Part shown: positions 21,962 through 64,000 of the stretch, piece after piece
How positions within the stretch are numbered: position 1 is the stretch's first letter
Layout of the letters: every line of letters starts with the position of its first letter
NCBI GenBank assembly: GCA_026770705.1
Contig: JANJGN010000015.1
Coordinates: 35,588,001 to 35,652,000 of the forward strand
Direction of reading: 5' to 3'
Source of the DNA: Isurus oxyrinchus
Lineage: Eukaryota
Length of the DNA stretch: 64,000 nt
Notes under the pieces: model-generated
Told to the model about the DNA's origin: nothing
The model's database searches: none
What the model saw: only the letters and a program-made list of their open reading frames with translations
Translations under genes and position numbers: made by a program

Positions 21962-22144
21962 TCCATATGAAGGCACTAGGGAATAAAGATTTACAAGGAT
22001 AATATAAGAACTGAGAGGTTACAACTATCTAGAAAGACTGCACAGACTTGGCTCTTTTCTCTAGAAGAAAGAAGACTGTGGGGTGACCTGACAGAGATCT
22101 TTACAATCATGAAGGGGTTTGATAGGGTAGACAACAGAAGAAAT

Positions 22145-23345: not shown

Positions 23346-23749
23346 TACCACTGAAGAGACAACCCATGCCCCTAGATTATCAGTGCTGACGAGCTGCCCT
23401 CACTCAATGGTATTCCATGAGGAAGGAGGGTTCAAAACTCTTACATCACACACTTCAAAAGAAGATTTAAATACGTCTCCCTGGCATCACACAAGGGTGC
23501 GGAGACTAGTTTAACTGAAGTTGACATCACAGGAATATGAATCTCACAGTGGGACATTCACATTGAGTGGGAAAAAGGCTAAACATCGAAATAGGATGAT
23601 TCCAATGTAACAAATTCGCAACGCCTTCAGTTGTCCAGTTCACATAACCATCAAATGTACTCCCCAAAATTCAATTTCTTTAGTTATAGCACACCAGTGA
23701 CCCAAAAGTGACATCAATGTATCTTAACTTTCCTAACTCTAGTGCTACG

Positions 23750-25388
23750 CCTGGATGCAGCCCCGACATCCGCAGCAGAGGTAGAGGCAGCCTGCTGACT
23801 ACTACGTCCTGATGTCTGTGATCACCTTGGCGGACGTCCTCTGGTGGCTGGAGGTTTGAAGGGTCTCGGCCTGGTAAGGGGCAGAAGCACCCTTGGTGGC
23901 CTGAGAAGCTGTAGTGGATGGGGTCACAGGCAGAAGGGGCTGTGACCGGTTGCACACCCTTGGAGTGTCGTGAGAGGAGACCCCCGGGGTGTCTGGCTGA
24001 CGCTCATCCTCCCTGTGGGTGCCCGAGGGCCCCGCCCTGACTCCTGCAGGAGATGGTGCACCCAGAGGGAGGTCAAGGTGCCTCATCGCCATGTCGCCTA
24101 CATCCTGATGGTGCCCACCAGGGTGTGTGGCCATGGAGTGAGGGCCATGCACAAATCCAGCAAAACCTATTGGATCAAGGTCTCCATGGTGGATGCCAGC
24201 CTTCCCATGGTGACCTCGAGGTGCTTGCATGTCGGAGCCATGACATCAGACAGAACGCGGACAAACTCCTCCATCGTTCACTCTAGTCTGAATAACTGCT
24301 GAATCTCTGCCTGTTGTTCCATCGCCTGTTGTTGCATTTCCAGCATTGAGTGGCAGCCGCTTCCAGAGGTTCATCTGACTCAGGCTGAGCAGGTGGCTGG
24401 TCTCCAGCAGCCCCCCAAGTGTTGGAGATCTGGGCTGTCCCAGCCTCTGACTGTCAGTAAAGTGCTCCCCAGAAAGTGAGCCCAAGCCTAATCTACAGCT
24501 GTGTCCCCACCAACGTGTGTGTCTCTGAGCTGGTGGAGGGTGCGTGTGAGTGTCGGGGCGGTTCTTCCAGGGCTTCTTGTTCGGACCTGGCCTCAGGGTT
24601 TGGACTGCTGCTCGGGTGCCTTGTGGCCCTCAAACTGCTGGTGCCTAGAAAATAGAAAATAGAGTTTCAGTTAATGAGCATGAGCTGGATAAGACTTCAT
24701 GTGACTCATTGTGAATGTCAGGATTTGATGAAGTGTTGGAGCTGAGATCCACACTGGGGGTTGACCTCCCCTTCCCCACAGGAATGATCCCTGTCCTCCC
24801 CAGCCAGCTGGGCTGCAGCCTCCTCAAACTCAGTGAGGGCGATGATATCGGCTGTCCCTCCCCCAGTCTGCGCTCTCTCGCTCCTGTTGTGCACCAGCTT
24901 GGCCTGTTTGAAGAAGAAAGAAAGGTGTGTGATGAGAAGGGATGGAGCTGATGTTGGGTGAAATGCATATCCCTGTGTGTGGAGTTCCCACCCCAGAAGG
25001 GCCAGAGGATGGAGTGTGAGCAATGTGATGGATGGGAAGGTGGTGATGTGAAAGTCTTGATGAGAGAGTGAGTATTGATATGTGTCCCCCACTAATGGTT
25101 GTGTGAGATCCCTGAAGAGAGTCACCATGACTTACCCTGGCAGAGTGGATGAGATCATTCATCTTCTTGCTGCATTGCATGGCATTTTGGGCGCCAGCCA
25201 CGCTGACCTGCTCTGCGATGGCTTCCCAGGCCGGAGACATATGTAAAGGCTGCTGTGCTTCCTGGAGCCGTCCCTGGGATACAGCTCATGCCTGTGCACC
25301 CAAACTCCTCTGAATATGGCCTGGAGGGCCTGGTGGGTGCTGCCTTCTTCTTGAGGCTTTTGGCCGCCTTCTTGTGGCTGGAAGACAT
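23750..25388 (-). pseudogene. Harbinger Myb/SANT accessory gene remnant (3 exons)
   Basis: Exon 1 MSSSHKKAAKSLKKKAAP..PAWEAIAEQVS..QCSKKMNDLIHSAR then GTAAGT at 25135; exon 2 AKLVHNRSERAQTGGGTADIIALTEFEE. Confidence 0.85.
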
Positions 25389-25734
25389 CTCTGCATGTGT
25401 CCTGAAGACAGGTGGGCTGGAGAGAGTGAGATGTATGTGTTGGGATGATGTTTAAGTGTGATGCCCGGACCTTCGACCACCCTCCCCAACACCCGCCCAC
25501 CACCCCACAACCAGCTGACGGCAGGGCAGAAGAATCAGCTCCCGATACTTGCCTGATACTTGCCTGTGCATAATTAATGATCTTCCAAGTGCGGAATCAG
25601 GCACGAGTTCCCACCATTCCTGCCAGTGGGGTGGGTGCCACATAAATCTCCTGCCACTGCACTTAGTCTCATAAATGGAGAATTCCACCCCTTGTTTCTA
25701 AAGCTTCCCCAATCGTCTGGCTTACCAGTAGTCT

Positions 25735-26492: not shown

Positions 26493-27703
26493 ATGGGGAT
26501 TGTAGCCTCCGCTGGAGGCACCTCCTCTGTGAAGGAAGAGACAGGCAGAAGGGAGAGGAGGCCATGTGTCTCTATTCAGCCTCGAGGAGAGGCGCAGGCT
26601 CAAGGAGGGCAGGATCAACAGAAAGTCCAAGGCGGAAGGGGCCACAGAAGACGCCACTCTCCCTCTGCCAGGTTTTCCAGTAGTGATGCAGCTACCTCAA
26701 TATGTCTGAGGTGCAATGCCAAAGAGGGCTCCATCTCTCAAGGGAGACAGTGATCTCCATTTGTCAGATGATTGGGCCTGACATCAGCTTCGACTGTGTG
26801 TGTGGACACCCGATGCCAGTGGCTCTGAAGGTCACAGTGGGCCTCAACTTCTATGTTTCCTGCTCTTTCCAGGGCTTGGTGGGTGATCTTTGTGGAGTCT
26901 CCCAATCAGCTGTTCACACTTGTGTCAAGCTGGTGACAGGAGCTCTGTTCAGGCATGCATTGACTTTCCTTCATTAATGTACGGACGAGGCCAGTCAGGC
27001 TGAGTGAGCCAAAGGCTTCACAGCGATTGCTGGCTTCCCCTGCATCCGGGGTGCAATCGCCTGCTCACATGTGGCCACTAAGGCGCCAGCAGGTGAGCCC
27101 GATGCCTTTGTCAACAGGAAGGGCTCCCACTCCATGAAGCTAGTGTGTGATCACAGGATGCAGATTCTGCAAGTCTGTGCAAGGTAGCCAGGCAGCTCCC
27201 ACAATGCTTACATCCTGAGACACTCCCAGGTGCCAAGGCTCTTCAGTGCTTCAGCCCAGCTGGATGGATGGCTGCTGGGTGACAAGGGCTATCTCCTCAA
27301 AAGGTGGCTTACGACTCCTCTCCGCCACCCAAGAACAGAGGCCAAGCAGCAGTACAACAGTAGTCACGCCTCCACAAGGGCTGTAGGAAAGAGAACCATT
27401 GGTCTTCTCAAGATGCGCTTCCGATGCCTGGACTGCTCAGGGGGAGCACTGCAGTACCCACCAGACCATGTCTCATTGATAGTGGTTGCATGCTGCCTTC
27501 TCCACAATCTGGCACTGGCAAGGTGGGACACAGCTGAGGAAGAGGATCCTGACGCAGCTGCACAGGCAACAGATGATGAGTCCATTAGTGAGTCCGAGGG
27601 TGAGCACTCTCAGGAGAACGCTGAGGGTATAGACACTGACCTGGGTAACCTCTAAGGAGGCAGGGATGCTCAGGATGCTTTCATCCAACCGTCCTTCAGC
27701 TAG
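26493..27703 (+). pseudogene. Harbinger DDE transposase, almost full length, inactivated
   Basis: [101 protein letters not shown]; in-frame stops; catalytic D residues changed (IAC, HNA). Confidence 0.93.
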
Positions 27704-31385: not shown

Positions 31386-32526
31386 CAGCTGGGCTTAATT
31401 TCTAACTCATTTGTTTCATTTTTCAAAACAATTTGTTGAGTAATATTCATGAATTCTTTGACGTTTATTCTGTGTTTTCTCATTAATCCCATGTTCATTT
31501 ATCTAGGCTTGTTGAGTATCCTGCTAAATTTCTGTATGACAGGGATCCATTGATGTGAAAGGAAAGGGCTGAGATAGCAATATGTTTAAGAAAGGCACTA
31601 AGAGACCATAGGAAGACACAGTGGGTACACGACTGGTGTCCAAAAGATGGACAAAACTGCAGCTCATTTAACATTGACTGACATCGCATGGTATTAATGG
31701 AGCAGTAAGGGCAAATTTTAATTGTTATGTTTAACATAATACACTCCTTCACGAATGATATAGTTTTGTGATGGACATTTAACAATCTGATTTGGGATTC
31801 AGAATGACTCATCTAAAACATTCCTCACAGATGTCACCATAAATAAGTTGAAGGGAAACAGCAAAATCTCCAGTAACATCTTCTCCCTCCTATTATTGCG
31901 CTCCACAAATAGAAAACACTTTTAACATTTTGAGTGATAAATATCAGGAAGGAGAGATTTTATTTGGTGTTCTCTTACTTAACACCCATTGGCCTTTACT
32001 AGGCACATTTTTATGGTGACAATGAAAACTCAGTAGGCTGCAGGAATGACACCAGATTCTACAGCCCCATGGCACCACACACTGGGTGTTCCAGCAAACT
32101 GCAACACCCACCGCACTTGCGCTTGTGAATGAGAGCAGCCTTAACAGGACAATTTGCAGGATTAGCAAGTTGACAACATGAAGGAATGAATCAGTTTTAT
32201 TTCGGCAAGGGGAGAGGAAGACTGGTTTCATAAAGCAACGTTATTGGAGACAGGAAGAAATAGGGTGCCAACTGAAAAGGTTTTGTGCACAATTTTAAAA
32301 GAACTTAAGCAGGAATGAATCTCCGCCAGAGCTGATCAGGAAGCAAACATTCTCAGATGCTGGAAATGTGAAAGAAAAGTGGAAAATGCTGAAAACACTC
32401 AGCAGGCCAGGAAACAGCTTGGGGAGGCTTTCTCTGAACTGCAAGAAGTTACAGATATGCACCATTGAAAAAAGAACATAAACCAAAGGGAGACCAGAGA
32501 AGAAGTGGACTAGTACAGCACAGACT

Positions 32527-33480
32527 TCCCTTCCCTTCCTTGACCTCTCTGTCTCAATCTCTGGTGATAGACTGTCCACCAATATCCACTACAAACCCAC
32601 CGACTCCCACAGCTACCTCGACTACAGCTCCTCACACCCCGCTTCCTGTAAGGACTCCATCCCATTCTCCCAGTTCCTTCGCCTTCGTCGCATCTGTTCC
32701 GATGATGCTACCTTCAAAAACGGTTCCTCTGACATGTCCTCCTTCTTCCTTAACCGAGGTTTTCCACCCACGGTCGTTGACAGGGCCCTCAACCGTGTCC
32801 GGCCCATCTCCCGCGCATCCGCCCTCACGCCTTCTCCTCCCTCCCAGAAACATGATAGGGTCCCCCTTGTCCTCACTTATCACCCCACCAGCCTCCGCAT
32901 TCAAAGGATCATCCTCCGCCATTTCCGCCAACTCCAGCATGATGCCACCACCAAACACATCTTCCCTTCACCCCCCTTATCGGCATTCCGTAGAGATCGC
33001 TCCCTCCGGGACACCCTGGTCCACTCCTCCATCACCCCCTACTCCTCAACCCCCTCCTATGGCACCACCCCATGCCCACGCAAAAGATGTAACACCTGCC
33101 CCTTCACTTCCTCTCTCCTCACCGTCCAAGGGCCCAAACATTCCTTTCAAGTGAAGCAGCATTTCACTTGCATTTCCCCCAACTTAGTCTACTGCATTCG
33201 TTGCTCCCAATGTGGTCTCCTCTACATTGGAGAGACCAAACGTAAACTGGGCGACCGCTTTGCAGAACACCTGCGGTCTGTCCGCAAGAATGACCCAAAC
33301 CTCCCTGTGGCTTGCCATTTTAACACTCCACCCTGCTCTCTTGCCCACATGTCTGTCCTTGGCTTACTGCATTGTTCCAGTGAAGCCCAACGCAAACTGG
33401 AGGAACAACACCTCATCTTCCGACTAGGCACCTTACAGCCTTCCGGTCTGAATATTGAATTCAATAACTTTAGGTCGTGA
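32527..33480 (+). CDS. Penelope polyprotein C-terminal part: end of RT, thumb/linker, GIY-YIG endonuclease (317 uninterrupted codons, no native start)
   Basis: SLPFLDLSV..YKPTDSHSYLDYSSSHP..SIPFSQFLRLRRICS, CPRKRCNTC, NLVYCIRC..LYIGET..RFAEH, EQHLIFRLGTLQPSGLN. Confidence 0.92.
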   Translation, partial: SLPFLDLSVSISGDRLSTNIHYKPTDSHSYLDYSSSHPASCKDSIPFSQFLRLRRICSDDATFKNGSSDMSSFFLNRGFPPTVVDRALNRVRPISRASALTPSPPSQKHDRVPLVLTYHPTSLRIQRIILRHFRQLQHDATTKHIFPSPPLSAFRRDRSLRDTLVHSSITPYSSTPSYGTTPCPRKRCNTCPFTSSLLTVQGPKHSFQVKQHFTCISPNLVYCIRCSQCGLLYIGETKRKLGDRFAEHLRSVRKNDPNLPVACHFNTPPCSLAHMSVLGLLHCSSEAQRKLEEQHLIFRLGTLQPSGLNIEFNNFRS

Positions 33481-36035: not shown

Positions 36036-36098
36036 CAAGGTACAGGAATGTAAAACAGAGGAGGGAAATCAGACGATAGTAATATTATAATAATATTG

Positions 36099-36412
36099 GA
36101 GGGGTATGGTGGTGTAGTGGTAATATCACTGGATCCAGAGGCCCAGGCTAATGCTCTGGGGATACGTGTTCAAACCCCACCATGGCAGCTGGTGGAACTT
36201 AATTTGAATTAGTAAATCTGTAATTGAAAGCTGGTCTCAGCAGTGGTGACCATGAAACTATTATCAATTGTTGTAAAAACTTGTCTGGTTCACTCATATC
36301 CTTTAGGAAGGAAATCTGCTGTCCCTACCTGGTCTGGCCTGCATGTGTCTCCAGACCCACAGCAACATGGTTAACTCTTAACAATCTGAAATCACCTAAA
36401 AAACCACTCAGT
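36099..36412 (+). mobile_element. tRNA-derived SINE (head plus body, tail missing)
   Basis: A-box tggtgtagtgg, B-box gttcaaacccc, body ctggttcactcatatcctttaggaaggaaatctg..ccagacccacagcaa..ccactcagt. Confidence 0.85.
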
Positions 36413-39790: not shown

Positions 39791-41262
39791 ATAGAGTTAT
39801 ACAGCACGGAAACAGGCCGTTTGGCCCATCATGCCAGCCATCAAGCACCTATCTATTCTAATCCCATTTTCCAGGGCTTGGTCCATAGTCCTGTATGCTG
39901 TGGTGTTTCAAATGCTCATCTAAATACATCTTAAATGTTGTGAAGGTTCCTGCTTTGATCACGCCCTCAGGCAGGGAGTTCCAGATTCCAACCACCCTCT
40001 GGGTGAAAAGTATTTTCCTTAAATCCCCTCTAAACCTCCTGCCCATTACCTTAAATCTATATCCCCTGATTATTGACACTCCCGTTAAAGGGAAATGCTT
40101 CTTCCTACCTACCCTATCTAAGTCCCTCATAATTTTGTATGCCTCTATCACGTCCCCCCTTAGCCTTCTCTGCTCTAAGGAAAACAACCCTAGCCTATCC
40201 AGTCTCTCTTCATAGCTGAAACGCTCCAGCCCAGACAATATCCTGGTGAATCTCCTCTGCACCCTCTCTACTGCAATCACATCCTTCCTATGGCATGGCG
40301 ACCAGAACTGCACACAGTACCTCCTGCTGTGGCCTAACTAGCATTTTATAGAGCTCCATCATAATCTCCCTGCTCTTATATTCTATGTCTTGGATAATAA
40401 AGGCAAGCATCCCATATGCCTTCTTAACCACCTTATCTACCTGTGCTGCTGCCTTCAGGGATCTATGGACATGTACACCAAAGTCCCTCTGACCTTCTGT
40501 ACTTCCTAAGGACCTACTATTTATTGTGTATTCCCTTGCCATATTTGTCCTCCCAAATGCATCACCTCACACTACTCAGGATTAAATTCCATTTGCCACT
40601 GCTCTGTCCATCTTACCAGCCTATCTATATCGTCCTGCAATCAAAGGCTTTCCTCCTCACTATTCACAACACCACCAATTTTCATGTCGTCTGTGAACTT
40701 ACTGATCATACCTCCTACATTCATGTCTAAATCATTAATGTACATTACAAACAGCAAGGATCCCAGCACCGATCCTTGTGGTACACCACTCATCACAGGT
40801 TTCCAATCGCAAAAACAACCTTTGACCATCACCCTCTGACTCCGGCTACCAAGCCAATTTTGGATTCAATTTGCCAAATTGCCCTGGATCCCTTAGACGC
40901 TTACCTTCTTGACCACTCCCTCATGCAGGACCTTGTCAAAAGCCTTACTAAAGTCCATGTAGACTACATCAACTACACTATCCTCATCTACATAACTACT
41001 CACCTCCTCAAAATATTCAGTCCAATTTGTTAGACATGATCTCCCCCTGACAAAGCCATGCTGACTATCCCTGATTAATCGTTGCCTCTCCAAGTGGAGA
41101 TTAATCATGTCCCTCAGAATTTTTTCCAATAGTTTCCCTACCAATGATGTTAGACTCACTGGCCTGTAATCACCTGGTTTATCCCTGCTACCCTTCTTGA
41201 ATAATGGTGCCACATGCACTGACTTCCAGTCCTCTAGCACATCTCCTGTGGCCAGAGAAGAT
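39791..41262 (-). mobile_element. CR1 LINE, 5'-truncated (RT domain to 3' tail)
   Basis: DWKSVHVAPLFKKG..YRPVSLTS, YMDFSKAFDKV, SGVPQGSVLG, SKFTDDMK, QFWSP..WNSLPE. Confidence 0.95.
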
Positions 41263-41269
41263 TTTCTCC

Positions 41270-41365
41270 CTTCTAGGAGGCAGAGGTCATGGGTTCGGAA
41301 GGTGCTGTCGAAGGAGCCTTGGCGAAATGTTGCATTGCATCTTGTGGATGGTGCACACTGCTGTA
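41270..41365 (-). mobile_element. LINE fragment (family of 51680-52213)
   Basis: Reverse complement of 52105-52203: cagcagtgtgcaccatccacaagatgc..gccaaggctcctt.gacagcaccttcc. Confidence 0.75.
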
Positions 41366-44300: not shown

Positions 44301-46505
44301 GTTTGGCCACATTATGTGACCATCAAATCCTGGAGCTGATTTGAATCCAGGGCTTCTAGCCAAGAGGTAGGGATACGCCAAGAATTTAAAAACCTTATTT
44401 CAAGTTTTACAACTTTAGATATGTGCGGAGTCATTATTAGCACATATATCAACACACACATGCATATACTATACCTATATCTATGTGGTGCACACTTGCA
44501 GCCCACATGAATTAATTATGTATTGAGAGTCGATCAGTTGCTGATTTTTCACCGGGTCAATTTTTATTTTCCATTTACTTGGAAGATATTGCCAACCTTA
44601 ATTTCAAAGCAAATAAAAATTTCAATGAGTCTGGGTAACAAGTCTTGAAAACGAGTTTGAACTTCTGTGAACTTCTGTGGAAAGGAGATTGAGTGTGGTG
44701 AAAACATCAGCTGTTAATTCAAAGTGCTGACATAGACCAATTTCATTCCCTTATATACCTTCTGTACAGCGAAGTCAGCACTGTACTGTAATTGTTGGTA
44801 TACAAATTCATAGGCTACACCAGATCCTTCACAATTATAAATAATAAAACTGAAGAGCACAAACAGATAAGATAGATGCCAAATACAGAAGTATTAGTGT
44901 TAATAATAAAATAAAAATATCAAAGTTCAGTGCCGTTGCTACATTAGATTCATGGCAATATATGGCAATACTTTGCATTGAATTGTCTCCACCACATTTT
45001 GTCCGCTTTGTTCCTTAAAATGAATGTGTGTTTTGTACATGTGAAAAAACAAAAGAAAGCATTTCATTGAGAGCCAGACTTCAGCTAATTTGTCCACACA
45101 GATTTGAAGGCTGACCCCTAATTATGGGTCTCAGTGTAAATTTCATAGAAATGACCAGACTAACATTTCAAATGGAATCAGATGTTGCCCGTTCAAGGGT
45201 TAAATGCAGCATGATTGGATTGACTAGTTGGAACTTAATCATGGGCCTAAGACAATGCAGACTGCCCCACTCCCTTCCTCAAGGATGCAATGTGAGTAAT
45301 GGTGCTTTGAATCACTCCAAAACATTCATCAGACAGAGGAAGGACAAAGAGTCAATCAGAAGGAGTTGAGGGAGGTCAAATTGGCAAACATGAAACAAAT
45401 ATTTTGATCCCAAAGCACAGATCAGATAAAGAAAGTACCATTTGTTTCCTTAAATTGATAGTTATCATTTGCAAGGACAGCATTGGCCTGGTCAGTGTAC
45501 ACTCATGTAAGGAAGTATTGTTCAAAACACACAGTTCACAGCACCACCTCTATATGCATGATATTTGATTACGCAAAGTTGACTTACTGCATATATGCCA
45601 GAAAGATCTGGCAGCCAAGGACCAACGCAAAATATTAGTAAACATTCGTTTCTTTGATTGTATTCTCTAACCCTTCACCCTTAGTAGAATTCACTTTTGA
45701 CCACTAAACATCTATCACATAATACAACTGAATATTGATAAGTGGAAAACTTGGATTTAAACAAAAAATATTCTTTCACTAAATGTGGGCATCCCTAATT
45801 ACCCATGAGAAGGTTGTGGTGAGCCATTTTCTTGAATCACTGCAGTCCATCTGCTGCAGGTACACTCACAGTGCTGTTGGGGTGTCTGCCACACATTTCT
45901 TCCAAGTGGTATTTGACATGGAGGAGTACTGATCAGATGAAGTGGTGGTAATCAGCAGGAGGTTTCTTGGCCCATGCTTGACCTGTTGCTATGAGACTTT
46001 ATGGGGTCCAGAGTCAATGATTCTTGACTGATACCACTGTGCCGCCATCTCTGCTGGGTCTGTCCTGCAGGTAGGACAGGACATGCCCAGGGATGGTGAT
46101 AATGGTATCTGGGTCATTGCTGTAAAGTATGATTCAGTGAGTATGACTATACCAGGCTGTTGCTTGACTAATCTGTGGGACAGCTCTCCCAATTTTAGCA
46201 TAAATACCCAGATATTTGTAAAGAGGACTTTGCAGAGTAGACAAGGCTGGATGTGCCATTGTCATTTCCAGTGCTTAGGTCAATGCTAGGTGATCCATCT
46301 GGTTGTATTCCTTTTCAACTTATCTGTAGCAGTCTGGTAGAACTGAGTGGCTTGCTAGTCTATTTCAGAGGACAGGTGAGAGTTAACCACATTTCTGTGG
46401 GTCTGGAGTCACATGTAGGTCAGACCAGGTAAGGACACCAGATTTCCTTCTCTAAAGGACATTATGAACCAGATGGGTTTTTACAATTAATGATGGTTTC
46501 TTGGC

Positions 46506-46607
46506 TTCATCAGCAACTGTCCCTCGATTCGAGGATAACTTCTGTTCAAGGTCTTTATGTGACTGAACAGGTTGATTCTTGGCCCATTGATCTTTGGGGC
46601 CTAAATG
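46506..46607 (-). mobile_element. Short RTE-like 3' fragment nested in the element above
   Basis: 8-bp TSD ttcttggc (46498-46505, 46608-46615); gtccctcgattcgaggataactt resembles RTE 3' ends; family call tentative. Confidence 0.55.
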
Positions 46608-46685
46608 TTCTTGGCACCATTACTGGAACTAGCTTTCAATTCCAAAATTTTATTAATTAAATTTAAATTCCACTAGTTGCCATGG

Positions 46686-46879
46686 GAACAGAAGACTTAG
46701 GAGCAGGAGTAGGCCATTTGGCCCTTCAAGCCTGCTCTGCCATTCAATACGATCTTCGGCTGACCTGGTTGTGGTCTCAGCTCCACCTTCCTATCTGCCA
46801 CCCCCATAACACTTGACTCCCTTGTCTATCAAAAATCTAACTAACTCAGCCTTGAATAAATTTAAATGGCCAGCCTTCA
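46686..46879 (-). mobile_element. CR1 3' end nested in the SINE head
   Basis: aggagcaggagtaggccatttggcccttcaagcctgctctgccattcaa; atgg repeated on both sides. Confidence 0.85.
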
Positions 46880-49856
46880 ATGGCGGCATTTGAACCCAAG
46901 TCTCCAGGGTATTAGGCTAGGCTAGTAGTCCTGTGATATTACCACTAAGCCACCACCTCCCCTTAGATGAAGTTTTTTCTAGTGGGAGTGATACATAAGA
47001 GGTTTATGCTTAAATTGGGATTGAGCTGGTGGTGATTTAAAAGAGTTAAAAACAGATTTGGTCTTAACAAATAACAGCTGCTTAATTGCAAAATGATCAG
47101 TCTTGTTTCTTTTTTATATTTATTATATTTATTACATAACGTATCTAGGAATGATTGTTTGCCATTCATTTTCATCGTGCTGTTCTGCTACAGATTATAG
47201 GGCTATGTAGTAGAATATTGCATGAGTAATTATATATAGATTATCAAACATTTTTCTCTGAGATGCAGCCTGAATCGGTCCAGTTTCAACAGATTTGCTC
47301 AAGCCCACATTGCAAGTTAATCCATTTGCTCTGAAAAAACAATATCCTTTCATCGCTAGCTGTTTTGGATGCAAAATGTCTTCAAATGTAGTCTTACAGT
47401 AATACTCGGCTATTACTAAATTTGAACACTGCGTCAATGTCCAAGGTTAAAAGGGATCCTGATTCAGTGGCATTTCACATGAGAATAAAAATGACACAAA
47501 ATGGCACCTTGGTGCAATATTAATTCCTGTACTGAGGTTAAGGTTCTATCAGAACTAGGGAATGACAACACCTGGCTCGCACGTAATGTTGTCAACTTTA
47601 ATTGAACCTGCAGTTGTTGCCACATGACTTTGTGCTTCCAACTGCACCCTTCAGAGAAAAAAACAATTCGGACCAGTGCTCTTATTTTCCAGTTTTTACT
47701 GCTAATCCATTTTAAGGTATTCAAGACCAGTTCGGACCAGAGTTCTTATTTACTGATTTTTCACTCTGGGTGCCATTGGTCAACGGACACCTCCATTCCT
47801 GCAGTGCCCCACCTAACCACACTAATTGGAAAATGATCAGAACCTTCACTGTCTGATTGGACAATTCTTAACTGTCAGTCTTTTGTTGCCATGCTCAATA
47901 TCGTTGTAACTGATAAACAAAAGAGTTCAGAGAAAATTTGGAAAACGCTATTTTTAATGCCACTATGATTTTTCTCCTGGGCTTCTCACAGCAATTCCTT
48001 GCTGATTAATCTTTAATTTGTGAAAAATCCAAGGCAATGCCAAAATGTTGCCGACTCTACTCACATGTGAATCCTGAACCCGAGAAACTCAATTCTTACT
48101 TGCTGCTTTCTTCTGTCTAAAATCCTGTGGCCCAAGTGTTTGAAAGGGCTGTTCTTGATTGATGAATAAATCCTAACTTAGAACACCAAGGTGTGATAGT
48201 ACCTGCAAATTGCAAGATAATCTCATTAAAGGGAACGTAGATTTAAACATGATATGTGACTCTTTAGACAGACATGATGCACAGATAAAGCCCCTTGAAT
48301 AGAAAGGAAAATTGTACCCCCTTGATCTATACCGTACCATACTTGATATTAATGTACTTAATGCTGCAATTGGGTAAAATATGAAAGATTATTTCTATCT
48401 ACAATATATCATCTCCGTCATGATGTGCCGAGAAAAACACAAGCAGAGCACTCAGTAGTAAAGAATGAAACAAATTGAGTTGTGATTAAGGGCTGTGCTA
48501 TGTTTGCCAAAATTACTTATCTGAAATATTGCATGTCTAAGCTTTCAATGATATAATGCAAAATGTTTCTGGTAATTTGAATGGGGGCTGAAAAGCTCAA
48601 ATACAAATCGTCCAGGATCCTTTTTTCTCTAGAACTTATTAAAAGCAGATTACTTCATTATCCTTTTCTGATTGCCTTCAGGCTAAGTACTGTGCTGTTT
48701 GTCCAGTCCTCAAGCAGTGATGTTTTGCAAATAAATAGTGTTGGAAAGGATTTGATTCCTTTGTGGACAGTATATTCATTAAAGTGCTAGTGTGATGAAA
48801 GGACAGAGATCACTGGTTGGAGACAAAACCAGAAGCATTATTGCTGGTGGAGCTGCCTGCTCAATGTACTCTGGGTATTTGACATCTCACTGATCTCTCC
48901 CCTTTGTAACGACCTTTATACATCAAAAGCTGTGTGGAATTTACTGATAAGTTTGCTCAGCTAAGCACCAGAGAAGAATTTGTGTGTACCCGTGGGGTCT
49001 AGGGATATTATTATTAGAGGAGATTAATGGAAGATTACACTGTGTTGGTGTGCACTTTTATAAGTTGGCCTTGGCTCTCTGTACTACAGCTGCAAATTAA
49101 TATTTGTTGCATGCTTGCATGTAAAATTCTGGGTAAATGCAGGTATTTGCCCAGATCGAATATTTTATTGATACTAAGTTTCACGTGCTTTTTGCATTAG
49201 TCCAGGCTCCAGAGTTTAATTTCCAGTGATGAATTGGTGATAGACACTCGTTTGCTCTCTTCGCCCTCAGCAGGGCCATCTCCAACTTTTTGGTCTTATT
49301 TTTCCACAGCTGGGCATGAGGATTCCGTTCACGCATGTTTGCAACTTGCCTTTTAAGGAAAGGACAGTTGGTGTTGACTGTGTGCTTTACTGTAAATAAA
49401 ACTAATACACAATTTTGCTCCTGATTGAATCCGCTGTTGGTTTCCGTTGGGCTGCTCGCTGATGCTGATTGCAGCATTCGCAGTTATCCTCGAGAGGTTA
49501 GAGATGATTCAGCCATTATGATAGTGACACTCATCATTGGATTTAGGGGAGCTGCCATAGGAAACTGCAATGAGGAATTGTGGCCACCTCAGTGTGTAAA
49601 GGTAAACAGTAGCTCATTCGGTAATAGTTAAGGTGAAGGAGAGAGCCTAAGTGAAGGTAAGGATGAGACATTGAATAAAAAGTAAATAGGTAGTAAATAA
49701 AAAAATTGTATCAGCATTTATAAATGATGGTGGAAGTGTTGCAGGCAAGTCAGTGTGTATTGGTGGTCCTAAGCCTGGATAAATGGGGAGGGTTAGTAGC
49801 AGGAAGGGCATCTGGGTGTAAAACCTTCTGCCAAATCAAAAAATTATGGTTGATAT

Positions 49857-51679: not shown

Positions 51680-52213
51680 AGACATACACTTGGGCTGACA
51701 GTAAGTGGCAAGTAACATTCATGCCACACAAGTGCCAGGTAATAACCATCTGCAACAAGAGAGAATCTAACAATTGCGCCTTGACATTCAGTGGCATTAC
51801 CATTGCTGAATCCTGGGGTCAACCATTGACCAGGAACTGAACTGGATTAGCCATGCAAATAATGTGACTACAAGAGCAGGTCAGAGGCTAGGAATCCTGC
51901 GGTGAGTAACTCACCTCCTGACTCCCCAAAGACTGTCTACCAACTACAAGGCACAAGTCAGGAGTGTGATGGAATACTCTCCACCTGCCTGGATAAGTAC
52001 AGCTCCCACAACACTCCAAGAAGCTTGACACCATCCAGGACAAAGCAGCCCACTGATTGGCACCCCATCCAGAAACATTCACTCCCTCCACCACTGACAC
52101 ACAGAAGCAGCAGTGTGTACCATCTACAAGATGCATTGCAGGAACTCGCCAAGGCTCCTTAGACAGCACCTTCCAAACCCACGACCCCTATCACCTAGAA
52201 GGACAAGGGCAAC
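51680..52213 (+). mobile_element. CR1/L2-group LINE ORF2 3' fragment (likely the family of the tRNA-headed LINE)
   Basis: KWQVTFMPHKCQ..TIDQELNWISH..RAGQRLGILR..YKAQVRSVMEYSPPAW..KLDTIQDKAA. Confidence 0.88.
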
Positions 52214-52386: not shown

Positions 52387-54333
52387 CATAGAAACATATA
52401 AAATGGGAGCAGGAGTAGGCCATTCGGCCCTTCAAGCCTGCTCCACCATTCATTCTGATCATGGCTGATCATCCAACTCAATAGCCTGCTCCCAATTTCT
52501 CCCCATATCCTTTGATCCCTTTCACCCCAAGAGCAAAATCTAACTCCTTCTTGAAAACATACAATGTTTTGGCCTCAACTGTGGAAGCAAATTCCACAGG
52601 CTCACCACTCTGTGGGTGAAGAAATTTCTCCTCATCTCAGTCCTAAATGGTCTACCCAGTATCCTCAGACTGTGACCCCCAGTTCTGGACTCCACCACCA
52701 TCGGGGACATCCTTCTTGTATCTACCCTGTCAAGTCCTGTTAGAATTTTATAGGTTTTTATAAGATCCCTTTCTTTCTTCTGAACTCCTTTGCTGAATTC
52801 TAAACTGCTCCCAATCCTCAGGTCTGTTGTTTTTTCTGGCTAATTTGTATGCCTCTTCCTTGGATCTAATACCATCTCTAATTTCCATTGGAAGCCAAGG
52901 TTTGGCCACTTTCTTGTTTTACTTGTGCACCAGACAGGAATAAACAATTGTTGCAGTTCACCCATGTGCTCTTTGAATGTTTGCCATTGCCAATCCACCA
53001 TTATCCCTTTAAGTAATGTTTCCTAATCCATTATAGCCAACTTGCGCCTCATACCATTGTAGTTTCCTTTATTAAGATTCAGGACCCTAGTCTCAGAATC
53101 AACTACGTCACTCTCCATCTTGATGAAGAATTCTAGCATATTATGGTTGCTCATCCCCAAGGGGCCTCGCACAACCAGATTGCCAATTATTCCTTTCCCA
53201 ATATAGAGTACCCAGTCTAGGATGGCCTGTTCTCTAGTTGGTTCCTCAACGTATTGGTCCAGAAAACCATCCCGTCTACACTTCAGGAATTCCTCCTCTG
53301 TGGTATTGTTACTAATTTGATTTGCCCAATTTATATGCAGATTAAAGTCACACACAATTACAAATGTTCCTTTATTGCATGCGTCTCTAATTTCCTGTTA
53401 ATGCCATTCCCAACATCACCACTACAGTTTGGGGGTCTATATACAACCACCGCTAACCTTTTTTGCTCCTTAGTGTTTCTCAGCTCTACCCATACAGATT
53501 CCACATCGTTGGAGCTAATATCTTTCCTCACTATGGCATTAATTTCCTCTTTAACCAGCAATGCAACTCCATCGCCTTTTCCTTTTTGTCTGTCCTTCTC
53601 AAACACTGAATAACCCTGGATGTTCAGTTCCCATCCCTGGTCACCCTGCAGCCATGTCTTCATAATCTAGACTATATCACACCTGTTTACAACTATTTGC
53701 ACAGTTAATTCATCCACTTTATTGCAAATGCTCCTCGCGTTAAGGCACAAAGCCTTAAGCTTGTATTTTTAACATTACTTGTCCCGTTCCCACTATTTTT
53801 CACTGAGTCCCTGTTTGATTCTTGGCCTTGATTTCTCTGCCTCTCACTTTTCTTATTCCCCTTTCTGTTTTTTGTTCCTGTCCTTGATTCCCCTCTTCCG
53901 CTGACTCCTTGCATAGGTTCCCAACCCTCTGCCATTTTAGTTAATACCCTCCCCAACCACTTTAGCAAATATTCCCCCGAGGACATCAGTCCTGGTTTTG
54001 TCCAGGTGTAACCTGTCCAGTTTGTACTGGTCCCACCTCCCCCCAGAACCGGTCCCAATGTCCCAGGAATCGGAAATCCTCCCCCTCACACCATCTCCTC
54101 AGCCATGTATGCATCCGATATGTCCTGCTATTTCTACTCTGACAGCATGTGGCACTGATAGTCATCCTGAGATCACTACCTTTGAGGTCCAACTTTTCAA
54201 CTTACTTCCTGACTCCCTATATTCTGCTTTTAGGACCTCATCCCTTTTTTTACCTATGTCATTTGTACCAATGTGTACCAGGACCACTGGCTGTTCACCT
54301 CCCCCTTCAGAGTGTCCTGTAGCCGCTCTGAGA
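52387..54333 (-). mobile_element. CR1 LINE with large internal deletion
   Basis: 3' tail catagaaacat; jump near 52785 from ORF2 end to endonuclease (TWLQGDQGWELNIQGY, VVYRPPN, DFNLHINW, EQAILDWV); ORF1 esterase WLRRWCEGEDFRFLGHW. Confidence 0.92.
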
Positions 54334-55178
54334 CAGAATCACACAGTGCAGAAGAGGCCCTTCAGCCCATTGAGTCTGCACCAACACGTGGGAAACACCT
54401 GACCTACCTACCTAATCCCATTTACCAGCACTTGGCCCATAACCTTGAATGTGATGACGTACCAAGTGCTCATCCAGGTACTTTTTAAAGGATGTGAGGC
54501 ACCCCTCCTGCATCACCCTCCCTGGCAGCGCATTCCAGTCTGTCACCACCCTCTGGGTAAAAAAGTTTTTCCTCACATCTCCCCTAAACCTCCTGCCCCT
54601 TACCTTGAACTTGTGTCCCCTCGTGACTGACCCTTCAATGAAGGGGAACAGCTGTTCCCTATCCACCTTGTCCATGCCCCTCATAATCTTGTACACCTCG
54701 ATCAGGTCGCCCCTCAGTCTTCTCTGCTCCAACAAAAACAACCCAAGTCTATCCAATCTCTCTTCATAACTTAAATGTTTCATCCCAGGCAACATCCTGG
54801 TGAATCTCCTCTGCACCCCCTCCAGTGCAATCACATCCTTCCTATAATGTGGCGACCAGAACTGCATACAGTACTCCAGCTGTGGCCTCACCAATGTTCT
54901 ATACAACTCCTTCATGACCTCCGTACTTTTGTAACCTATGCCTCGATTAATAAAGGCACATGTTCCATATGCCTTTTTCACCATCCCACTTACATGCCTC
55001 TCCACCTTCAGAGATCTATGGACACACACACTAAGGTCCCTTTGTTCCTAAGAACTTCCTAGTGCCATGCAATTCATTGAATACTTCCTTGTCAAATTAC
55101 TCCTTCCAAAGTGTATCACCTCACACTTTTCAGGGTTAAATTCCATCTGCCACTTATCTGCCCATTTGACCATCCCGT

Positions 55179-56426
55179 CTATATCTTCCTGTAGTCCAAG
55201 ACACTCAACCTCACTGTTAACCACCCGGCCAATGTTTGTGTCATCTGAAAACTTACTAATCCTACCCACATATCCACTAATCCCACATAGTCATCAATGT
55301 CGTTTATATAAATGACGAATAATAGGGGATCCAGCACAGATCCCTGTGGTACACCACTGGACACTGACTTCCAGTCACTAAAGCATCCTTCTGTCATCAC
55401 TCTCTGTCTCCTACAACTAAGCCAATTTTCAATCCACCTTATCAAATTACCCTGTATCCCATGCGTATTTGCCTTCCTTATCAGCCTCCCATGTGGGATC
55501 TTGTCACAGGCTTTGTTGAAATCCATATAAATTACATCAACTGCACGACCCTCATCTACACACCTGGTCACCTCCTCAAAAAATTCAATCAAATTTGTTA
55601 GACATGACCTCCCTCTGACCAAGCCGTGCTGACTATCCCTGATCAAACCTTGCCTCTCCAAGTAGAGATAGATTCTCTCTTTGAGAATTTTCTCCAATAG
55701 TTTCCCTACCACTGAAGTGAGACTCACTGGTCTGTCGTTCCTTGGCTTATCTCTACAACTTTTCTTAAATAGAGGAACCACATTAGCTGTTCTCCAGTCC
55801 TCTGGCACCTCCCCCATGGCCAGAGAGGAATTAAAAATTTGGGTCAGAGCCCCTGCGTTCTCGTCCCTTGCCTCCCTCAGCAGTCTGGGACACAAATCAT
55901 CCGGACCTGGAGATTTGTCCACTTTTAAGCCTGCCAACACCTCCAATACCTTGTCACTCCCTATATCAATTTGCTCAAGAACCTCACAGTCTCTCTCCCC
56001 GAGTTCCATACCTTCATCCTCATTCTCTTGGGTGAAGACGGATGTGAAGCATTTGTTCAACACTCTACTGATGTCCTCTGGCTCCACCCATAGATTGCCC
56101 CCTTGGTCCCTAATGGGCCCTACTCTTTCCCTGGTTACCCTCTTCCCTTTGATATACTTATAGAATATCTTGGTATTTTCCCTACTTTTACCAGCCTGAG
56201 CTTTCTCATATCCCCTCTTTGCTCTCCTAATTGCTTTCTTAAGCTCCACCCTGCGCTGTCTGGACTCCACTAATTCCTCCGCTGATTGGCTCCCCTTGTA
56301 CCTGCTAAAAGCCTCTCTTTTCCTTCTCATCGTATCCTGAATATCTCTGGTCATCAATGGTTCTCTAGGCTTGTTACTCCTTCCTATCACCCTAGAGGGA
56401 ACATGTTGAGCCTGTACCCTCCCCAT
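55179..56426 (-). pseudogene. CR1 ORF2 reverse transcriptase, longest open segment (415 aa)
   Basis: KSPGPDDLCPRLL, DWRTANVVPLFKK, SQHGLVRGRSCLTNL, YMDFNKACDKI, SGVPQGSVLDPLLFVIYIND; frameshift before FSDD. Confidence 0.92.
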
Positions 56427-57329
56427 TTCCTACTTTAACGCTCCCCACTGCTCTTCTGTATGTTTCTTCCCACAAGTAGCTGTGCCCAGTCTACCTTGGC
56501 CTGATCCTGCCTTATTTTATTAAAATCCGCTGTCCCGCAATCCAAAACATTTTTTTGCAACTTGTCTATTTCTTTGTCCATAACAAGCTTAAATAGTACC
56601 ATGTTGTGGTCGCTATCACTAAAAAGCTCCCCCACCACCACCTCAGCCACCGGTCTGGGTTAATTCCCCAGAATTAAGTCCAGCAATGCACCGTCCCTTG
56701 TTGGACCCTCTACATATTCTCCTGTACACATTTCAAGAAATCCACTCCATCCAAGCCTTTAACACTATGTCTATCCCAATTAATGTTGGGAAAGTTGAAA
56801 TCACCTAATATAATTACCCTATTGTTATTGTTTTTACCTCCACAAATTGTGCACATATTTGCTCCTCAATTTCCCGCTGACTATCAGGGGGTCTATAATA
56901 AACACCTAATAATGTGGCTGCCCCATTTTTATTCCTAAGCTCTACCCACAAAGCTTCATTCGATGCCCCCTCCAAGATATCATCTCTCCTTACTGCAGTA
57001 ACTGACTCCTTAACTAATAATGCAATGCGTCCTCCTCTTTTACTCCCACCCCTGTATCGCCTGAAGATTCTGTAACCCAGAATATTGAGCTGCCAATCCT
57101 GCTCCTCCCCCTGTAATGGTTACTATATCACAAATCCACCTGTTAATCCTCACCTTTGATTCATCCGTTTTACCTGTAATACTCCAGGCATTAAAGAGGC
57201 CATCCAGCCTTGCCTTACTCCTTTGAAACCTAATGCAGCTGTGGTCCCTCTGACTTGATTGTTTTACTATATTATGATGTGTCCCTATTCTGCTTACATT
57301 CTGTGTCCCCTCCCCCTGCCGAATTAATT

Positions 57330-57926
57330 TAAACTCCTCCCAAGAGCAGTAGCAAACCTGCCCTCAAGGATGTTAGTCCCGCTCTGATTCACTTGTACAG
57401 GTCCCACCTTCCCCAGAAATGGTCTCAGTGATCCAGGAATCTAAAACCTTCCCTCCTGTGCCAACTCTTAAGTCACGTATTCATCTGCGCTATTCTCCTA
57501 TTTCTGTGCTCGCTAACACGTGGCACTGGGAGTAATCCAGAGATTACAACTCGAGAGGTCCTGCTTTTCAGTTTACTGCCTAATTTCCTGAATTCATGAT
57601 GAAGGACCTCATCCCTCTTTCTACCTATGTCATTGGTACCAACATGTACCATAGTCCTCTTGCTCTGCCTGGTGGTCACCCATTCTCTTTCTGCCTGTGG
57701 ACACTTAGCCTGCGGTGTGACCACCTCTCTAAATGCGCTATCCATGACACTCTCTGCCTCGTGGATGCTCCACAGTGTCCCCAGCTGCTGCTCCAGCTCT
57801 GAAACCCAGGCTTCCAGGAGCTGCAGCTGGAGACACTTCATGCACACACGTTGGTCCCAGGCACTGGAAATGTTCCCGGCTTCCCACATAGAAGGAGCAC
57901 ACCACTGCTTTGAGCTCTCCTGCCAT
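57330..57926 (-). pseudogene. CR1 ORF1 remnant (zinc finger/leucine zipper plus esterase)
   Basis: MAGELKAVVCS.., MWEAG..CMKC, VHVGTNDIGRKR, VVISGLLPVPR. Confidence 0.88.
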
Positions 57927-58848
57927 GACTTACCCCATTAAATTAAATTAAACCTTTTGGAAGATACTTAATATCAAATAATATCAATTACTCTAGGGCC
58001 CTTCTTCCCCACTCCTCGTTGTTACAGAGTATAGCCCTTACAAACGATGAACCACAAAATAAGATCTTAAAAACTATAAGCAATAAAAATAGTAAATACT
58101 TACCTGACTGTACTCATGGTTCTCAAAGGATCACCTCGTTCCCGCCTCACTGAACTCCCTCATTCACCAAACTCCAACTTAAGCACTCCACTGCAGCCCA
58201 AAGCAGCACTCCAGTGTAGACAAAGCACTGTAAGATGGCCTGTTTTTATACTCTCTGAATCTCGCCTCTGAAAGCCTATTTAATACATTCACAGGAAACA
58301 CTCCAGATCACCAGTAGGCAGGCTTGGATTTGCCCACCCAGCCATGACCTCAGTGCTTCCTCGCTCCAGGCACCATATTTAAAGTGCTTGCCTACTTCAT
58401 GTCTACAGACCAGGAATGCTCCAGGTGACAGATGGCCCCGAAAGCAAAGAAGACGACAGCTCCCAAATGTAGTGACACCTCTCTGAGGTGCCTGCTGGAT
58501 GCAGTGGAAGGCAACCATGATGTTCTCTAGCCCTGCTCTGGCCGCAGGAGGTCCACGAGAGTCACCAATCTGACCTGGAAGGTGGTGGCAGTGGTGCATA
58601 GTGCACCGCAGCACAGTGGAGGTCAGCCATCCAGTGCAGGAAGAGGATGAATGGTCTCATCCATTCCGCCAGGGTAAGTCAACCGCCTCATCACTCTCAA
58701 CTCGCATACTAAAACCCATCACACATCCACAGGGATCTCATACCTCAAGAGACAACACCACTAACTCTCATACACACTCTCACATCTTCATCAGACTCAT
58801 ATCCTCTGGAGCTCATGTCCTCATCCTGTCCATGTCTCTGTTCACCAC

Positions 58849-60667
58849 TGTTGTGGCACAGCTGATGGTAAATGCTGAGCTGCTCAAATCCCAGAGGGAA
58901 ACTTGACACAGCTGCCATAACTGTTTGCATATTGTACTTTATTTTGAGATGTGTGCCTTGAATTCAGTAGTAATAAGCCCACGAGTCTTTGAGATTTTTG
59001 CAAAACTAAATTAAACATTTATTAATAGAAAAGAAAGGTTTTTAGGCACATTAATCAGCCTAAAAATTACTCCTATAATAACTCCATTAATCTGACCAGT
59101 TACACCTGTGTGAAGGCAACAGTAAAAAACAAATAAATTTCAACAGACCCAGGCAAAGCACACAAAACCCTGGACAAGGATATTCATAATGAGTTTTCTT
59201 AGCTTTGATTCCTATAGAAAGTGACCTTGAGGCTGGAGGCTTTTCACACTTGTTAGATCATAGAATTCCTTCTTTCCTTACACATAACCTCATCAAAGAC
59301 GCAGGTTTGTGCATTCCACCTCAAAAACCGTGAAGCCAAATGCCAGCTTAAAGTAACCTGGTGTGGAGCAACACTGATGCATTGCGAGCACTCTATCTAC
59401 TTAGGAGTCACCCTTGACAGGTGCCTCACCTTCAAGAACCATATCGAAAAGACAAAGGCAAAAGTGAGCGCACAAAACAACATCCTGAATAAGCTAACAC
59501 AAAATGGGGAGCAAGCTCGAAAACATTGCAAACCAGTGCACTTACTCTTTGCTATTCCACTGCCTGCCCTGCATGGGAAAGATCTACTCATGCTAAGATG
59601 GGTACTATTCTGAACGCAAGCTGTTGACTTATCACAGGTTGTTTAAAACCAACAAACAACAACAGCCTATATATCCTGGCGGGTATCACTCCCCCTGATA
59701 TAAGAAGAACTGTAGCCAGCAAGAAAGAGCGCCTCCGTCAAACATCAGATGAGAGGCACCCTCTACATGGTCATATACCTACACCCAGCTGCCTAAAGTC
59801 AAGGAAGATCTTCATGACCAGTGTTGTTCCATTACAATCAACCCCATCTGAAGTCCGCATTGCCTTGTGGAAAGACCGGCTCACCAGTCTCGAACAACCC
59901 CCAGTGATGGAAATTCTACCGGATGAACACCTTCCACCAGGAGCTAATTGCAACTGGGCAACCTGGAAGTGCCTTAACAGACTTAGGACTGGTGTAGGTC
60001 ATTCAAAGGTGTCACTAAGCAAATGTGGATATACAACCAGCCCGACAACTTGTGAATGTGGAACTGAGCCACAGACTGTGCAACATCTCCTGAAATGCCT
60101 ATCACTAGAGGAACCCTGCACTGTTGCAGATCTTGCCGAATTCAACAAGGCACAAAAATGTGTCCAGTTCTGGCTGGGCCATGTATAGACTGTCCGTGAG
60201 CACGATAAGAGGAAGAACCTCATCTCCTTTAAACACATTTCTCCCTTTTTAATGTAAATCCCATTGTTCCAATATGTCTTTGCAACTTTACTTTTTCCAT
60301 AATATAAATCTTTCATTGTGCTTATGTTATAAGTAATCTTTGGGAAAACTAAACACACTGTTTGGCTTAGCCTCTGTTGGCTAGGTGTAACATCTTACCA
60401 TCTCTTTGAAATTCATGACTCTGGTTTATCTAAAAATGCAAATGTTCTTCACACCTCACATTCTAAAACTTCAACCACATTTACAATATTTAGCATTTTA
60501 AACCTAGCTTCTCTTTTGATAGCTCAAAAGTTTCAGACTGGATGCCTGCAATTCACTTAAAACTCCCACATACAGAACCTCACACAGAGAATCTAATCCA
60601 AACCCCACTATTAACCTATCTTTACAATAAATGACAATATTGTGAGCATTATTATACTTTCATGGCA
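58849..60667 (-). mobile_element. Solo LTR in intron 1 of the Myb gene
   Basis: tgttgtgg..catggca termini with 4-bp TSD ccac (58845-58848, 60668-60671); AATAAA on minus strand near 59018. Confidence 0.72.
59295..60215 (+). mobile_element. Vingi (Ingi-related) LINE, 5'-truncated
   Basis: KTQVCAFHLKNREAK..YLGVTLDRCLTFKNHI; LPPGANCNWATWKCLNRLRTGVG..CECGTEPQTVQHLLKC zinc knuckle; gaa-type tail; TSD aacctcatc (59286-59294, 60216-60224). Confidence 0.85.
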
Positions 60668-62439: not shown

Positions 62440-63035
62440 GTTACCCATGTCCTTTCCCCCATCGTTGTTGATCCCCTGGCATCACCTTCCACCTCCCCAC
62501 TATCAACTACTAACCTGAACCCTTATTTTTCCAGGGTGTCCAAGTGAATGTGCACATTCCCTACCTCCCTGAGAATCCCACCCCCATCCACATTGACCTC
62601 CGCAACCCCGTCCTTCCCACCCTCAGGCTTTGTGTCTGCCTCCGAGTCCCCATCAACCACCCTCATTGTCCCTTCTACTGTTACCAACGCATCCTCACCC
62701 TCACACCCTTCCAGCTCCCTCTAGCCCTCTCACATTCACCATTCCCTCCTACCAAGCCCACCCTCATTTCGCTCCCCAGAAGGCAGACATTGACTCCGAA
62801 GATCCCTCCCTTGCACGTTCACCTGGAAATCCCCCATCCCCTACTCCTGCCTCCATCTTTACCCCTCCTTCCCCCGGACATTTCCCTTCCTTTTGATTCC
62901 TTTGCCCCTCTGAATTCAGTCCTCTCAAACACCTTTCTCCCTCTATACTCTTCCCTCCCTCCAAACTCCTTGCTCTGAATCCCTTCCCCCCTCAAACTCC
63001 TTCCCTTACAACTTCCTCTCCCATTACACCTTCCA
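62440..63035. repeat. Pyrimidine-rich low-complexity tract
   Basis: Strong C/T strand skew over ~600 bp, no recognisable motif. Confidence 0.55.
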
Positions 63036-63709
63036 ACCCCTCCAATCTATCCTCATAGCTACAGTTCTTGATCCCTAGAATTATTCTTGTGAATTTCCTC
63101 TGTACTATCTCCAATGTCTTCACATCCTTCCTCAAGTGTGGCGCTTGGAACTGGACGCAGTACTCCAAATGAGGCCTAACTAGTGTTTTATACAAGTTCA
63201 ACATGACCTCCTTATTCTTGTACTCAATGCCCCTATTAATAAAGCCTAAGCTATATGCATTATTAACTGCTCTCTCAACATGCCCTGCCATCTTCAAAGC
63301 TCTATGTACGTTCACACTGAGGTTCCTCTCTTCCTGTACCTCCTTTAGAGTTTCTTCCTTTACTTTATACTTTCACCATATTCTTCTTGCCAAAATGGAT
63401 CACCTCACACTTCTCTGCATTGAACTTCATCTGCCACTTGTCTGTCCAATCCAGCAACATGTCTTTGTCCTTTTGAAGTTCAAGACTATCCCCATCACAG
63501 TTGACAACATTTCCAATCTTCGTATCATCTGCAAATTTTGAAATCATGCCCTACACACCATAGCCTAGGTCATTAATATATATGAGGAAGAGCAAGGGTC
63601 CCAACACTGACCCCTGGTGAACTTCACTACAAGCCTTTCTCCAATCTGAAAAATAACCATTTATCACTATTCTCTGTTTCCTGTCACTCAGCCAATTTCT
63701 TATCCACAT
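63035..63709 (-). mobile_element. CR1 ORF2 fragment
   Basis: ISKFADDTKIG..WTDKWQMKFNAEKCEVIHFG; LYKTLVRPHLEYCVQF. Confidence 0.92.
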
Positions 63710-64000
63710 TGTAAAGAACATATTTTTATATTTTGGACTGTGGCTTTAAGATTGGACTGTGGCTATAAAAGCTACCTTGGCTGCAGCTTAAAAGAGATGT
63801 TCAATGGAGCAGGAAGAAGGAAATCTACAATGTTGCTATCCTGGAACAATGTGTGCCAGGTTGGACAGAATGGTGCTGGAGAGGAGACCTGGTTTAAGAG
63901 GGAACTGCCGAGTGATGGCATTTTGATTGACTCCTGACCAAGTGGACAGGGTCTGTGTGAGGATAGTGTGATGGATCAGCTCCTAGCCTGAAAAGAGGAA
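63710..64000 (+). mobile_element. Probable LTR start interrupting the CR1 (runs off window)
   Basis: CR1 homology stops abruptly at tgtaaaga; repeated ttggactgtggct and tataaaa follow. Confidence 0.45.

Follow-up and report, generated by a model that had tools for sequence, protein, structure and literature searches.

In a 64,000-nt stretch of the genome of the shark Isurus oxyrinchus (contig JANJGN010000015.1, positions 35,588,001 to 35,652,000; the whole stretch is called the window here), the segment 45765-46962 reads, on the minus strand, as a decayed and internally deleted copy of the Zenon long interspersed nuclear element (LINE) of sharks and rays. The copy opens with a tRNA-like head, followed by a body, a linker and the beginning of an apurinic/apyrimidinic endonuclease (APE) frame. 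We found that the head, the body of approximately 230 nt, the linker and a frame encoding APE and reverse transcriptase (RT) form one unit, which is conserved across sharks and rays. Judging from published consensus sequences, the full-length Zenon element of these animals is approximately 3.3 kb long, contains one open reading frame (ORF) and begins with a tRNA-like head that carries an A box and a B box.

Structure of the 45765-46962 copy

A first-pass annotation of the window had read a head with A and B boxes, a body, a linker, an APE start, a deletion and a 3' tail on the minus strand, and this order was borne out once two nested inserts had been excised. The features are as follows.

46880-46962, minus strand: tRNA-like head, 5' end of the Zenon LINE; A box at 46952-46942, B-box-like word at 46895-46887; same head in 7 of 7 elasmobranch consensuses (by eye)
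46686-46879, minus strand: nested insert 1, a piece of a CR1 LINE from its 3' end; 4-bp CCAT duplication; end matches the CR1-1_CM tail
46608-46685, minus strand: body, first part; 78% to 36180-36256
46506-46607, minus strand: nested insert 2, a multi-copy repeat; 8-bp GCCAAGAA duplication
46341-46505, minus strand: body, second part, likely the 5' untranslated region (UTR) of the LINE; 79% to 36250-36412; not a Deu, Meta or UCON3 domain
46232-46340, minus strand: a multi-copy linker, in which an A-rich tract is followed by a basic stretch in the endonuclease frame
45897-46231, minus strand: N-terminal part of the AP endonuclease; frameshifted, with small deletions
45795-45882, minus strand: probably the C-terminal end of the one ORF, beyond the deletion of ~2.4 kb; multi-copy; stop overlaps the tail
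45765-45809, minus strand: 3' tail; 29-base internal loss; A-rich end decayed; 32 of 39, 0 of 1000 shuffles

The A box lies 10 nt in from the 5' end of the copy, and the B-box-like word differs at one base from the consensus. With the inserts excised by script, head and body (46962-46341) measure 314 nt and align with 36097-36412 at 245 of 305 identical columns. The linker of 109 nt (46340-46232) joins the body to the endonuclease start; this reads KVLFTNIW..LGELSHRLVKQQPGIVILTESY and continues beyond a frameshift as DR..GGTVV. A match to the Pfam domain Exo_endo_phos was weak and was obtained on the homologue P0001 (E 0.091). Only about 430 nt precede the endonuclease in this copy, and there is no ORF1 among them. 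Approximately 2.4 kb, as estimated against the consensus length of 3.3 kb, have been lost after the endonuclease start, and RT is deleted from the copy. The tail was compared with positions 280-365, which include the tail that the first-pass annotation had seen at 285-363; 32 of 39 aligned bases agree across a 29-base internal gap, and none of 1000 shuffles did equally well. The poly-A that is present at 285-363 has decayed in the 45765-46962 copy, and no duplication bracketing the whole element is visible in its flanks.

Approximately 20 nt into the linker (~46330-46310, minus strand) there is an A-rich tract, whose length differs between species in the consensuses. Possibly this tract is the relic of a poly-A end and marks where a head-bearing RNA joined the LINE.

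Related copies were found elsewhere in the window.

36099-36412, plus strand: head and body without tail, stopping at the body/linker junction (alignment)
11560-11684, minus strand: head copy, 3' truncated, with the best-preserved tRNA-like arms (alignment, Rfam, fold)
285-363, plus strand: tail-only copy with poly-A end (alignment)
51680-52213, plus strand: RT end and C-terminal region, same Zenon family (frames, homologue matches)
41270-41365, minus strand: short fragment of the C-terminal region, same Zenon family, inside a CR1 copy (85% to 52108-52202)

In the window we count two heads that lack a tail, one isolated tail and one deletion copy of the element. The first-pass annotation had described the piece at 36099-36412 as a short interspersed nuclear element (SINE) that matches the body; the match stands, and the piece consists of head and body without a tail. 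As to the further claim, that an abundant SINE would be the internal-deletion derivative of the LINE, no short copy with head, body and tail and without coding sequence was found in the window or among the 15 joints listed of 914.

The two RT fragments had been ascribed to the same family as the headed copy, and we reached the same conclusion: they are 85% alike and are linked to APE through gene models of the whale shark. Three such models (P0005, P0024 and P0032) combine APE and RT, with RVT_1 in P0005 at E 1.9e-12, and three more (P0025, P0027 and P0026) match 51691-51992 at 63-75%. Because some models join APE with RT and others join RT with the 51691-51992 region, the RT pieces of the window are tied to the endonuclease family of the 45765-46962 copy. 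The RT of this family is only 20-36% identical to the CR1 copies of the window, and its placement in Zenon is itself taken from PMC13343379. In family coordinates the ends of the two fragments lie no more than about 10 nt apart, and the fragment at 41270-41365 interrupts the RT frame of a CR1 element.

The head-endonuclease junction in other copies and species

We aligned contigs from two organisms (X1 and X5) at 80% likeness, where depth does not equal copy number. At 46340, the first base of the linker, another letter was present in 93 contigs from X1 and in 99 from X5, so that these contigs stem from other copies. The summed contig depth was about 10,000-36,000 over the linker, compared with 13-91 in the flanks, and its peak over the body was about ten times that over the endonuclease. 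The joint 46200-46341 was covered in three and five contigs, with an unaligned stretch in between.

Protein searches gave 32 homologues among 8000 scored candidates. Gene models from EukProt made up 28 of the 32, and all 20 that were looked up came from the whale shark. Sixteen homologues have no endonuclease start and two have no N-terminal extension, which left 14 usable N-termini. Ten of these match the translated linker (eight) or body (two), with none of 300 shuffles as good, and the other four gave no firm match; as the search profile included linker-bearing rows, this sample is biased towards such matches. Two of the proteins, P0002 and P0006, read through the body/linker junction. A head-like match in P0013 was too weak to count (10 of 300 shuffles, in one of five regions tested). 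A word-index protein search with the 46-amino-acid APE piece gave no match, and HMMER gave four, one of which, P0003, was dropped as an unrelated, repeat-rich protein. Scans of metagenomes, viral sequences and genome contigs for further loci with flanks yielded none, and neither did a search of PDB sequences yield a match. The matches in Atlas were all under 0.8 and fell in RT/EEP clusters; we regard them as a lead only. In four whale-shark gene models (P0008, P0018, P0016 and P0019), exons of host genes (e.g. PF06534) are fused to the Zenon endonuclease, and these fusions are probably annotation artefacts arising from intronic copies.

Zenon LINEs of elasmobranchs have been reported by Stuart et al. 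2026 (PMC13343379), namely CarCar_Zenon-1, RhiTyp_Zenon-1, ScyCan_Zenon-1, SquAca_Zenon-1/2/3 and HypSab_Zenon-1. According to these authors, Zenon has a single ORF with APE and RT and a poly-A tail, and ORF1 is absent from all Zenon elements. Supplementary Table 2 of that paper gives every consensus over its first 400 nt, in which we read motif positions by eye. All seven elasmobranch consensuses (five species, 2886-3314 nt) open with the same head, body, junction and linker, and those of the 45765-46962 copy match them both on visual comparison and in a search for exact motifs. Read by eye, the A box comes 5-10 nt after the start in seven of seven, and six have a canonical B box. Between the two boxes the sequence has diverged among these consensuses, and lineage-specific heads retain both boxes. 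The three other Zenons (two from hagfish and one from coelacanth, the coelacanth row being of low confidence and mostly in lower case) have no head, and the B-box strings were absent from all other rows of the approximately 1000 consensus starts searched. Although the consensuses were extended automatically outward from RT seeds (PMC13343379), the longest single insertions equal the consensus length (3299/3288, 3299/3293 and 3322/3314), which argues against stitching by automatic extension.

The contigs, the gene models and the seven consensuses agree with the proposal of the first-pass annotation that an autonomous single-ORF LINE carries the head at its 5' end, and neither of the outcomes it had named as speaking against this, a junction unique to the locus or full-length copies with another 5' UTR and an ORF1, was found. 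Its remark that ORF1 is missing is true but no surprise, because this is a general trait of Zenon (PMC13343379). The words tRNA, promoter, Pol III and head have no matches in the text of PMC13343379. The Zenon family and its missing ORF1 are already in print, while the head, visible in the deposited consensuses, appears to have gone unremarked. No account of an autonomous LINE with a tRNA head turned up in the literature open to search (which did not extend to Repbase, Dfam, journals under subscription and part of the supplements).

Transcription of the element and rival readings

The heads of the window have an A box in three of three cases and an exact B box in one of three, the B box of the copy at 46962 being one base off. 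With the Rfam tRNA model, the head at 11622-11678 reached 16.2 bits (E 0.43, below the cut-off of 29), in a match that spans the A box, the D arm and the anticodon arm. The head folds into tRNA-like arms, with a stability no better than that of shuffles (z 0.07). A tRNA origin of the head seems plausible, on weak evidence. Because the element begins where RNA polymerase III (Pol III) would start, and because both boxes persist while the spacer drifts, we consider it somewhat probable that the head acts as the internal promoter for Pol III transcription of the whole Zenon element. In the first 400 nt, a run of four T occurs in none of the seven elasmobranch rows, compared with three of the three headless Zenons (by eye). 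An element that lacks ORF1 would be well served by a Pol III RNA, since in the L1 system Pol III RNAs retrotranspose with ORF2p alone (PMC2666806; this source and those cited below, other than PMC13343379 and PMC7245038, are cited from excerpts).

Several points weigh against Pol III transcription of the entire element. The Rfam tRNA model did not match the heads at 46962 and 36099, and ARAGORN found no tRNA. Pol III RNAs are uncapped and are usually poorly translated. The depletion of runs of four or more T from the sense strand, which the first-pass annotation had put forward as a check, was not significant: 1.84 runs would be expected in the 1206 nt of Zenon coding pieces, and one was found, at the edge of the tail. 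The CR1 controls contain 14 in 4804 nt, and a LINE piece of another, unrelated kind (59257-60188) has none in 932 nt. For the consensuses, the view of T runs is confined to the first 400 nt of each. The headless Zenons do without ORF1 as well, and its absence therefore does not depend on the head. Finally, intact ORFs are very rare in the six counts that could be read (0/2313, 1/1419, 3/612, 1/294, 0/59 and 0/396), which makes present activity doubtful.

The start of translation was also considered. Between the body and the endonuclease (46366-46232, minus strand), the 45765-46962 copy has no in-frame ATG. In the consensuses, ATG-GCC-TAG-CAA is found at the end of the body, in the endonuclease frame in three of five species (by eye), and an out-of-frame ATG lies within the linker. 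The Zenon ORF may be entered by reading through the stop, by re-initiation, by way of a frameshift or at a non-AUG codon.

The most serious rival reading accepts the head as a fixed part of the LINE and supposes that the full-length RNA is made by RNA polymerase II (Pol II), from an internal promoter in the body or by read-through, while the boxes are kept through exchange of 5' ends with a short, Pol III-driven partner. LINEs are generally Pol II units (PMC5786205), T-run depletion across the ORF is not significant, and a body depth about ten times that of the endonuclease is what would be expected if short head-bearing copies dominate. However, the 5' end coincides with the Pol III start position in seven of seven consensuses from five species, and the lineage-specific heads keep both boxes. 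We regard this reading as possible, though rather unlikely. It is far less probable that the LINE inserts site-specifically behind the body of a pre-existing SINE, so that head and body are target DNA. The junction does lie at a fixed point, at which the 36099 copy ends, and the A-rich tract comes after it; yet there is one tail followed by unique flank with no second SINE end, the deletion derivative retains head and tail as a single unit, and the longest insertions have the consensus length with the head included.

Chance adjacency at this locus, combined with chimeric consensuses that were automatically extended from their RT seeds into abundant SINE copies, is more improbable still and is largely refuted. 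No single listed contig covers the head through to the endonuclease. Nevertheless, the genomic copy joins head, body, linker and APE in the order of the consensus, contigs from other copies and whale-shark gene models cross the junction, and single insertions reach full length. Least credible of all is that the 5' part belongs to SacSINE1, a known SINE with a Deu domain, and is fused to an L2. SacSINE1 is a tRNA-headed shark SINE (PMC5499810); the Deu domain as printed in Kojima 2020 (PMC7245038, supplement figures) is unlike the body, and the LINE is Zenon rather than L2.

The label Deu/SacSINE1 was therefore rejected for the body, as were UCON3 and Meta domains, which are unlike it by eye. 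With the Deu domain as defined in PMC4824008 and PMC3234267, one of two Deu motifs matches positions 19133 and 12466 instead. The copies at these positions match one another, with none of 300 shuffles as good. Neither aligns above chance with the body, for which 164-298 of 300 shuffles did as well, or with the linker and the 36099 copy (108-298 of 300 over all three), and they thus represent genuine Deu SINEs of the window that are unrelated to the Zenon body. They are two decayed copies, at ~19050-19350 (plus strand) and 12408-12521 (minus strand), SacSINE1-like by the Deu motif.

Neighbouring elements, known systems and implications

Of the nested inserts, which the first-pass annotation had described as both flanked by target-site duplications, insert 2 (46607-46506) conforms well: it is 102 bp long with an 8-bp duplication, and among 20000 random pairs 61 had an 8-mer in common. 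It is multi-copy in the two organisms (summed contig depth 800-6000 versus 13-90 in the flanks), and no second copy was found within the 64-kb window. Insert 1 (46879-46686), the 3' end of a canonical CR1 element, is flanked by a CCAT duplication of just 4 bp; an 11-bp duplication was rejected because the 11-bp repeat sits within the CR1 piece. Canonical CR1 copies lie at 39847-41264, 53023-57937 and 62992-63710, and one CR1 copy carries upstream remains that are presumably esterase-like by motif. The frames at 32482-33480 (plus strand) and 10273-11230 are 90% alike over 895 nt and are presumably Penelope-like, with a GIY-YIG-type ending; arms of ~90 nt related to them form an inverted repeat at 21737-21962. 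We also take the fragments at 22364-25596 and 27014-27655 to resemble a PIF/Harbinger transposase and a Myb-like partner frame, by motif, and 59257-60188 (plus strand) is presumably the C-terminal part of another, RTE/Vingi-like non-LTR element.

With elasmobranch Zenon, the 45765-46962 copy has head, body, junction and linker in common, although ~2.4 kb are missing from it and two inserts interrupt it. Lepidopteran Zenon has a SIDE, Persaeus (Wang et al. 2019, PMC6740152), which is likewise an internal deletion and retains the 5' UTR, the ORF start, the ORF end and the tail; unlike the shark copy, Persaeus is described in the excerpt as having neither tRNA similarity nor a Pol III promoter. 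Bipartite SINEs from RTE and Vingi (Bov-tA type; Kojima 2018, PMC5786205) also combine a tRNA head, a LINE 5' part and a LINE tail. In these, however, the head sits on a non-coding deletion product and the donors given are only RTE and Vingi, whereas in the shark case a coding Zenon bears the head. The same source calls the origin of conserved SINE bodies unknown. SacSINE1 and other Deu-SINEs have a tRNA-type head in shark DNA (PMC5499810) like the Zenon copy, which lacks the Deu domain, and SacSINE1 is described as sharing only its tail with L2-2_CM (PMC5499810; also PMC2746220, PMC3747384). Zenon-tailed SINEs of bivalves and butterflies have a Zenon partner and are described as having the tail alone in common with the LINE (PMC11481361, PMC6685494), and motif searches in the bivalve SINE supplements gave no match. 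In the excerpt of a whale-shark preprint, CR1-Zenon is named once, with no structure given (10.1101/443036).

As for the origin of the element, the head was probably gained on the stem of sharks and rays, because the hagfish and coelacanth Zenons lack it, and a template switch onto a tRNA-headed RNA may have brought it in. The body would be either the LINE's own 5' UTR or a part that arrived with the head as a ready SINE. Pol III would start ~5-10 nt before the A box, that is, at the first base of the element, so that each full-length copy would bring its own promoter along. Translation of the uncapped RNA would then have to do without an in-frame AUG, and the resulting protein would copy its own RNA via the tail; this is the weakest step. 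Internal deletions would yield non-autonomous derivatives with head and tail, like the 45765-46962 copy, and their extreme form would be a SINE. Taken together, this would be an autonomous coding LINE, transcribed end to end by Pol III from a captured tRNA head, needing neither cap nor in-frame AUG, persisting since the split of sharks and rays and spawning SINEs by internal deletion; we put it forward tentatively, as a scenario that falls a little short of probable.

LINEs are classically coding elements transcribed by Pol II, and SINEs non-coding elements transcribed by Pol III that have only the tail in common with them. A tRNA head, usually confined to non-coding SINEs, would break this division when fixed on a major vertebrate LINE family and, if the scenario is true, Zenon of sharks and rays would be a living bridge between LINE and SINE. 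It may also offer a direct route to the origin of SINE bodies, in which the body is the 5' region of a LINE from a clade outside RTE and Vingi, and it makes testable whether a Pol III RNA of 3.3 kb can serve as a natural mRNA.

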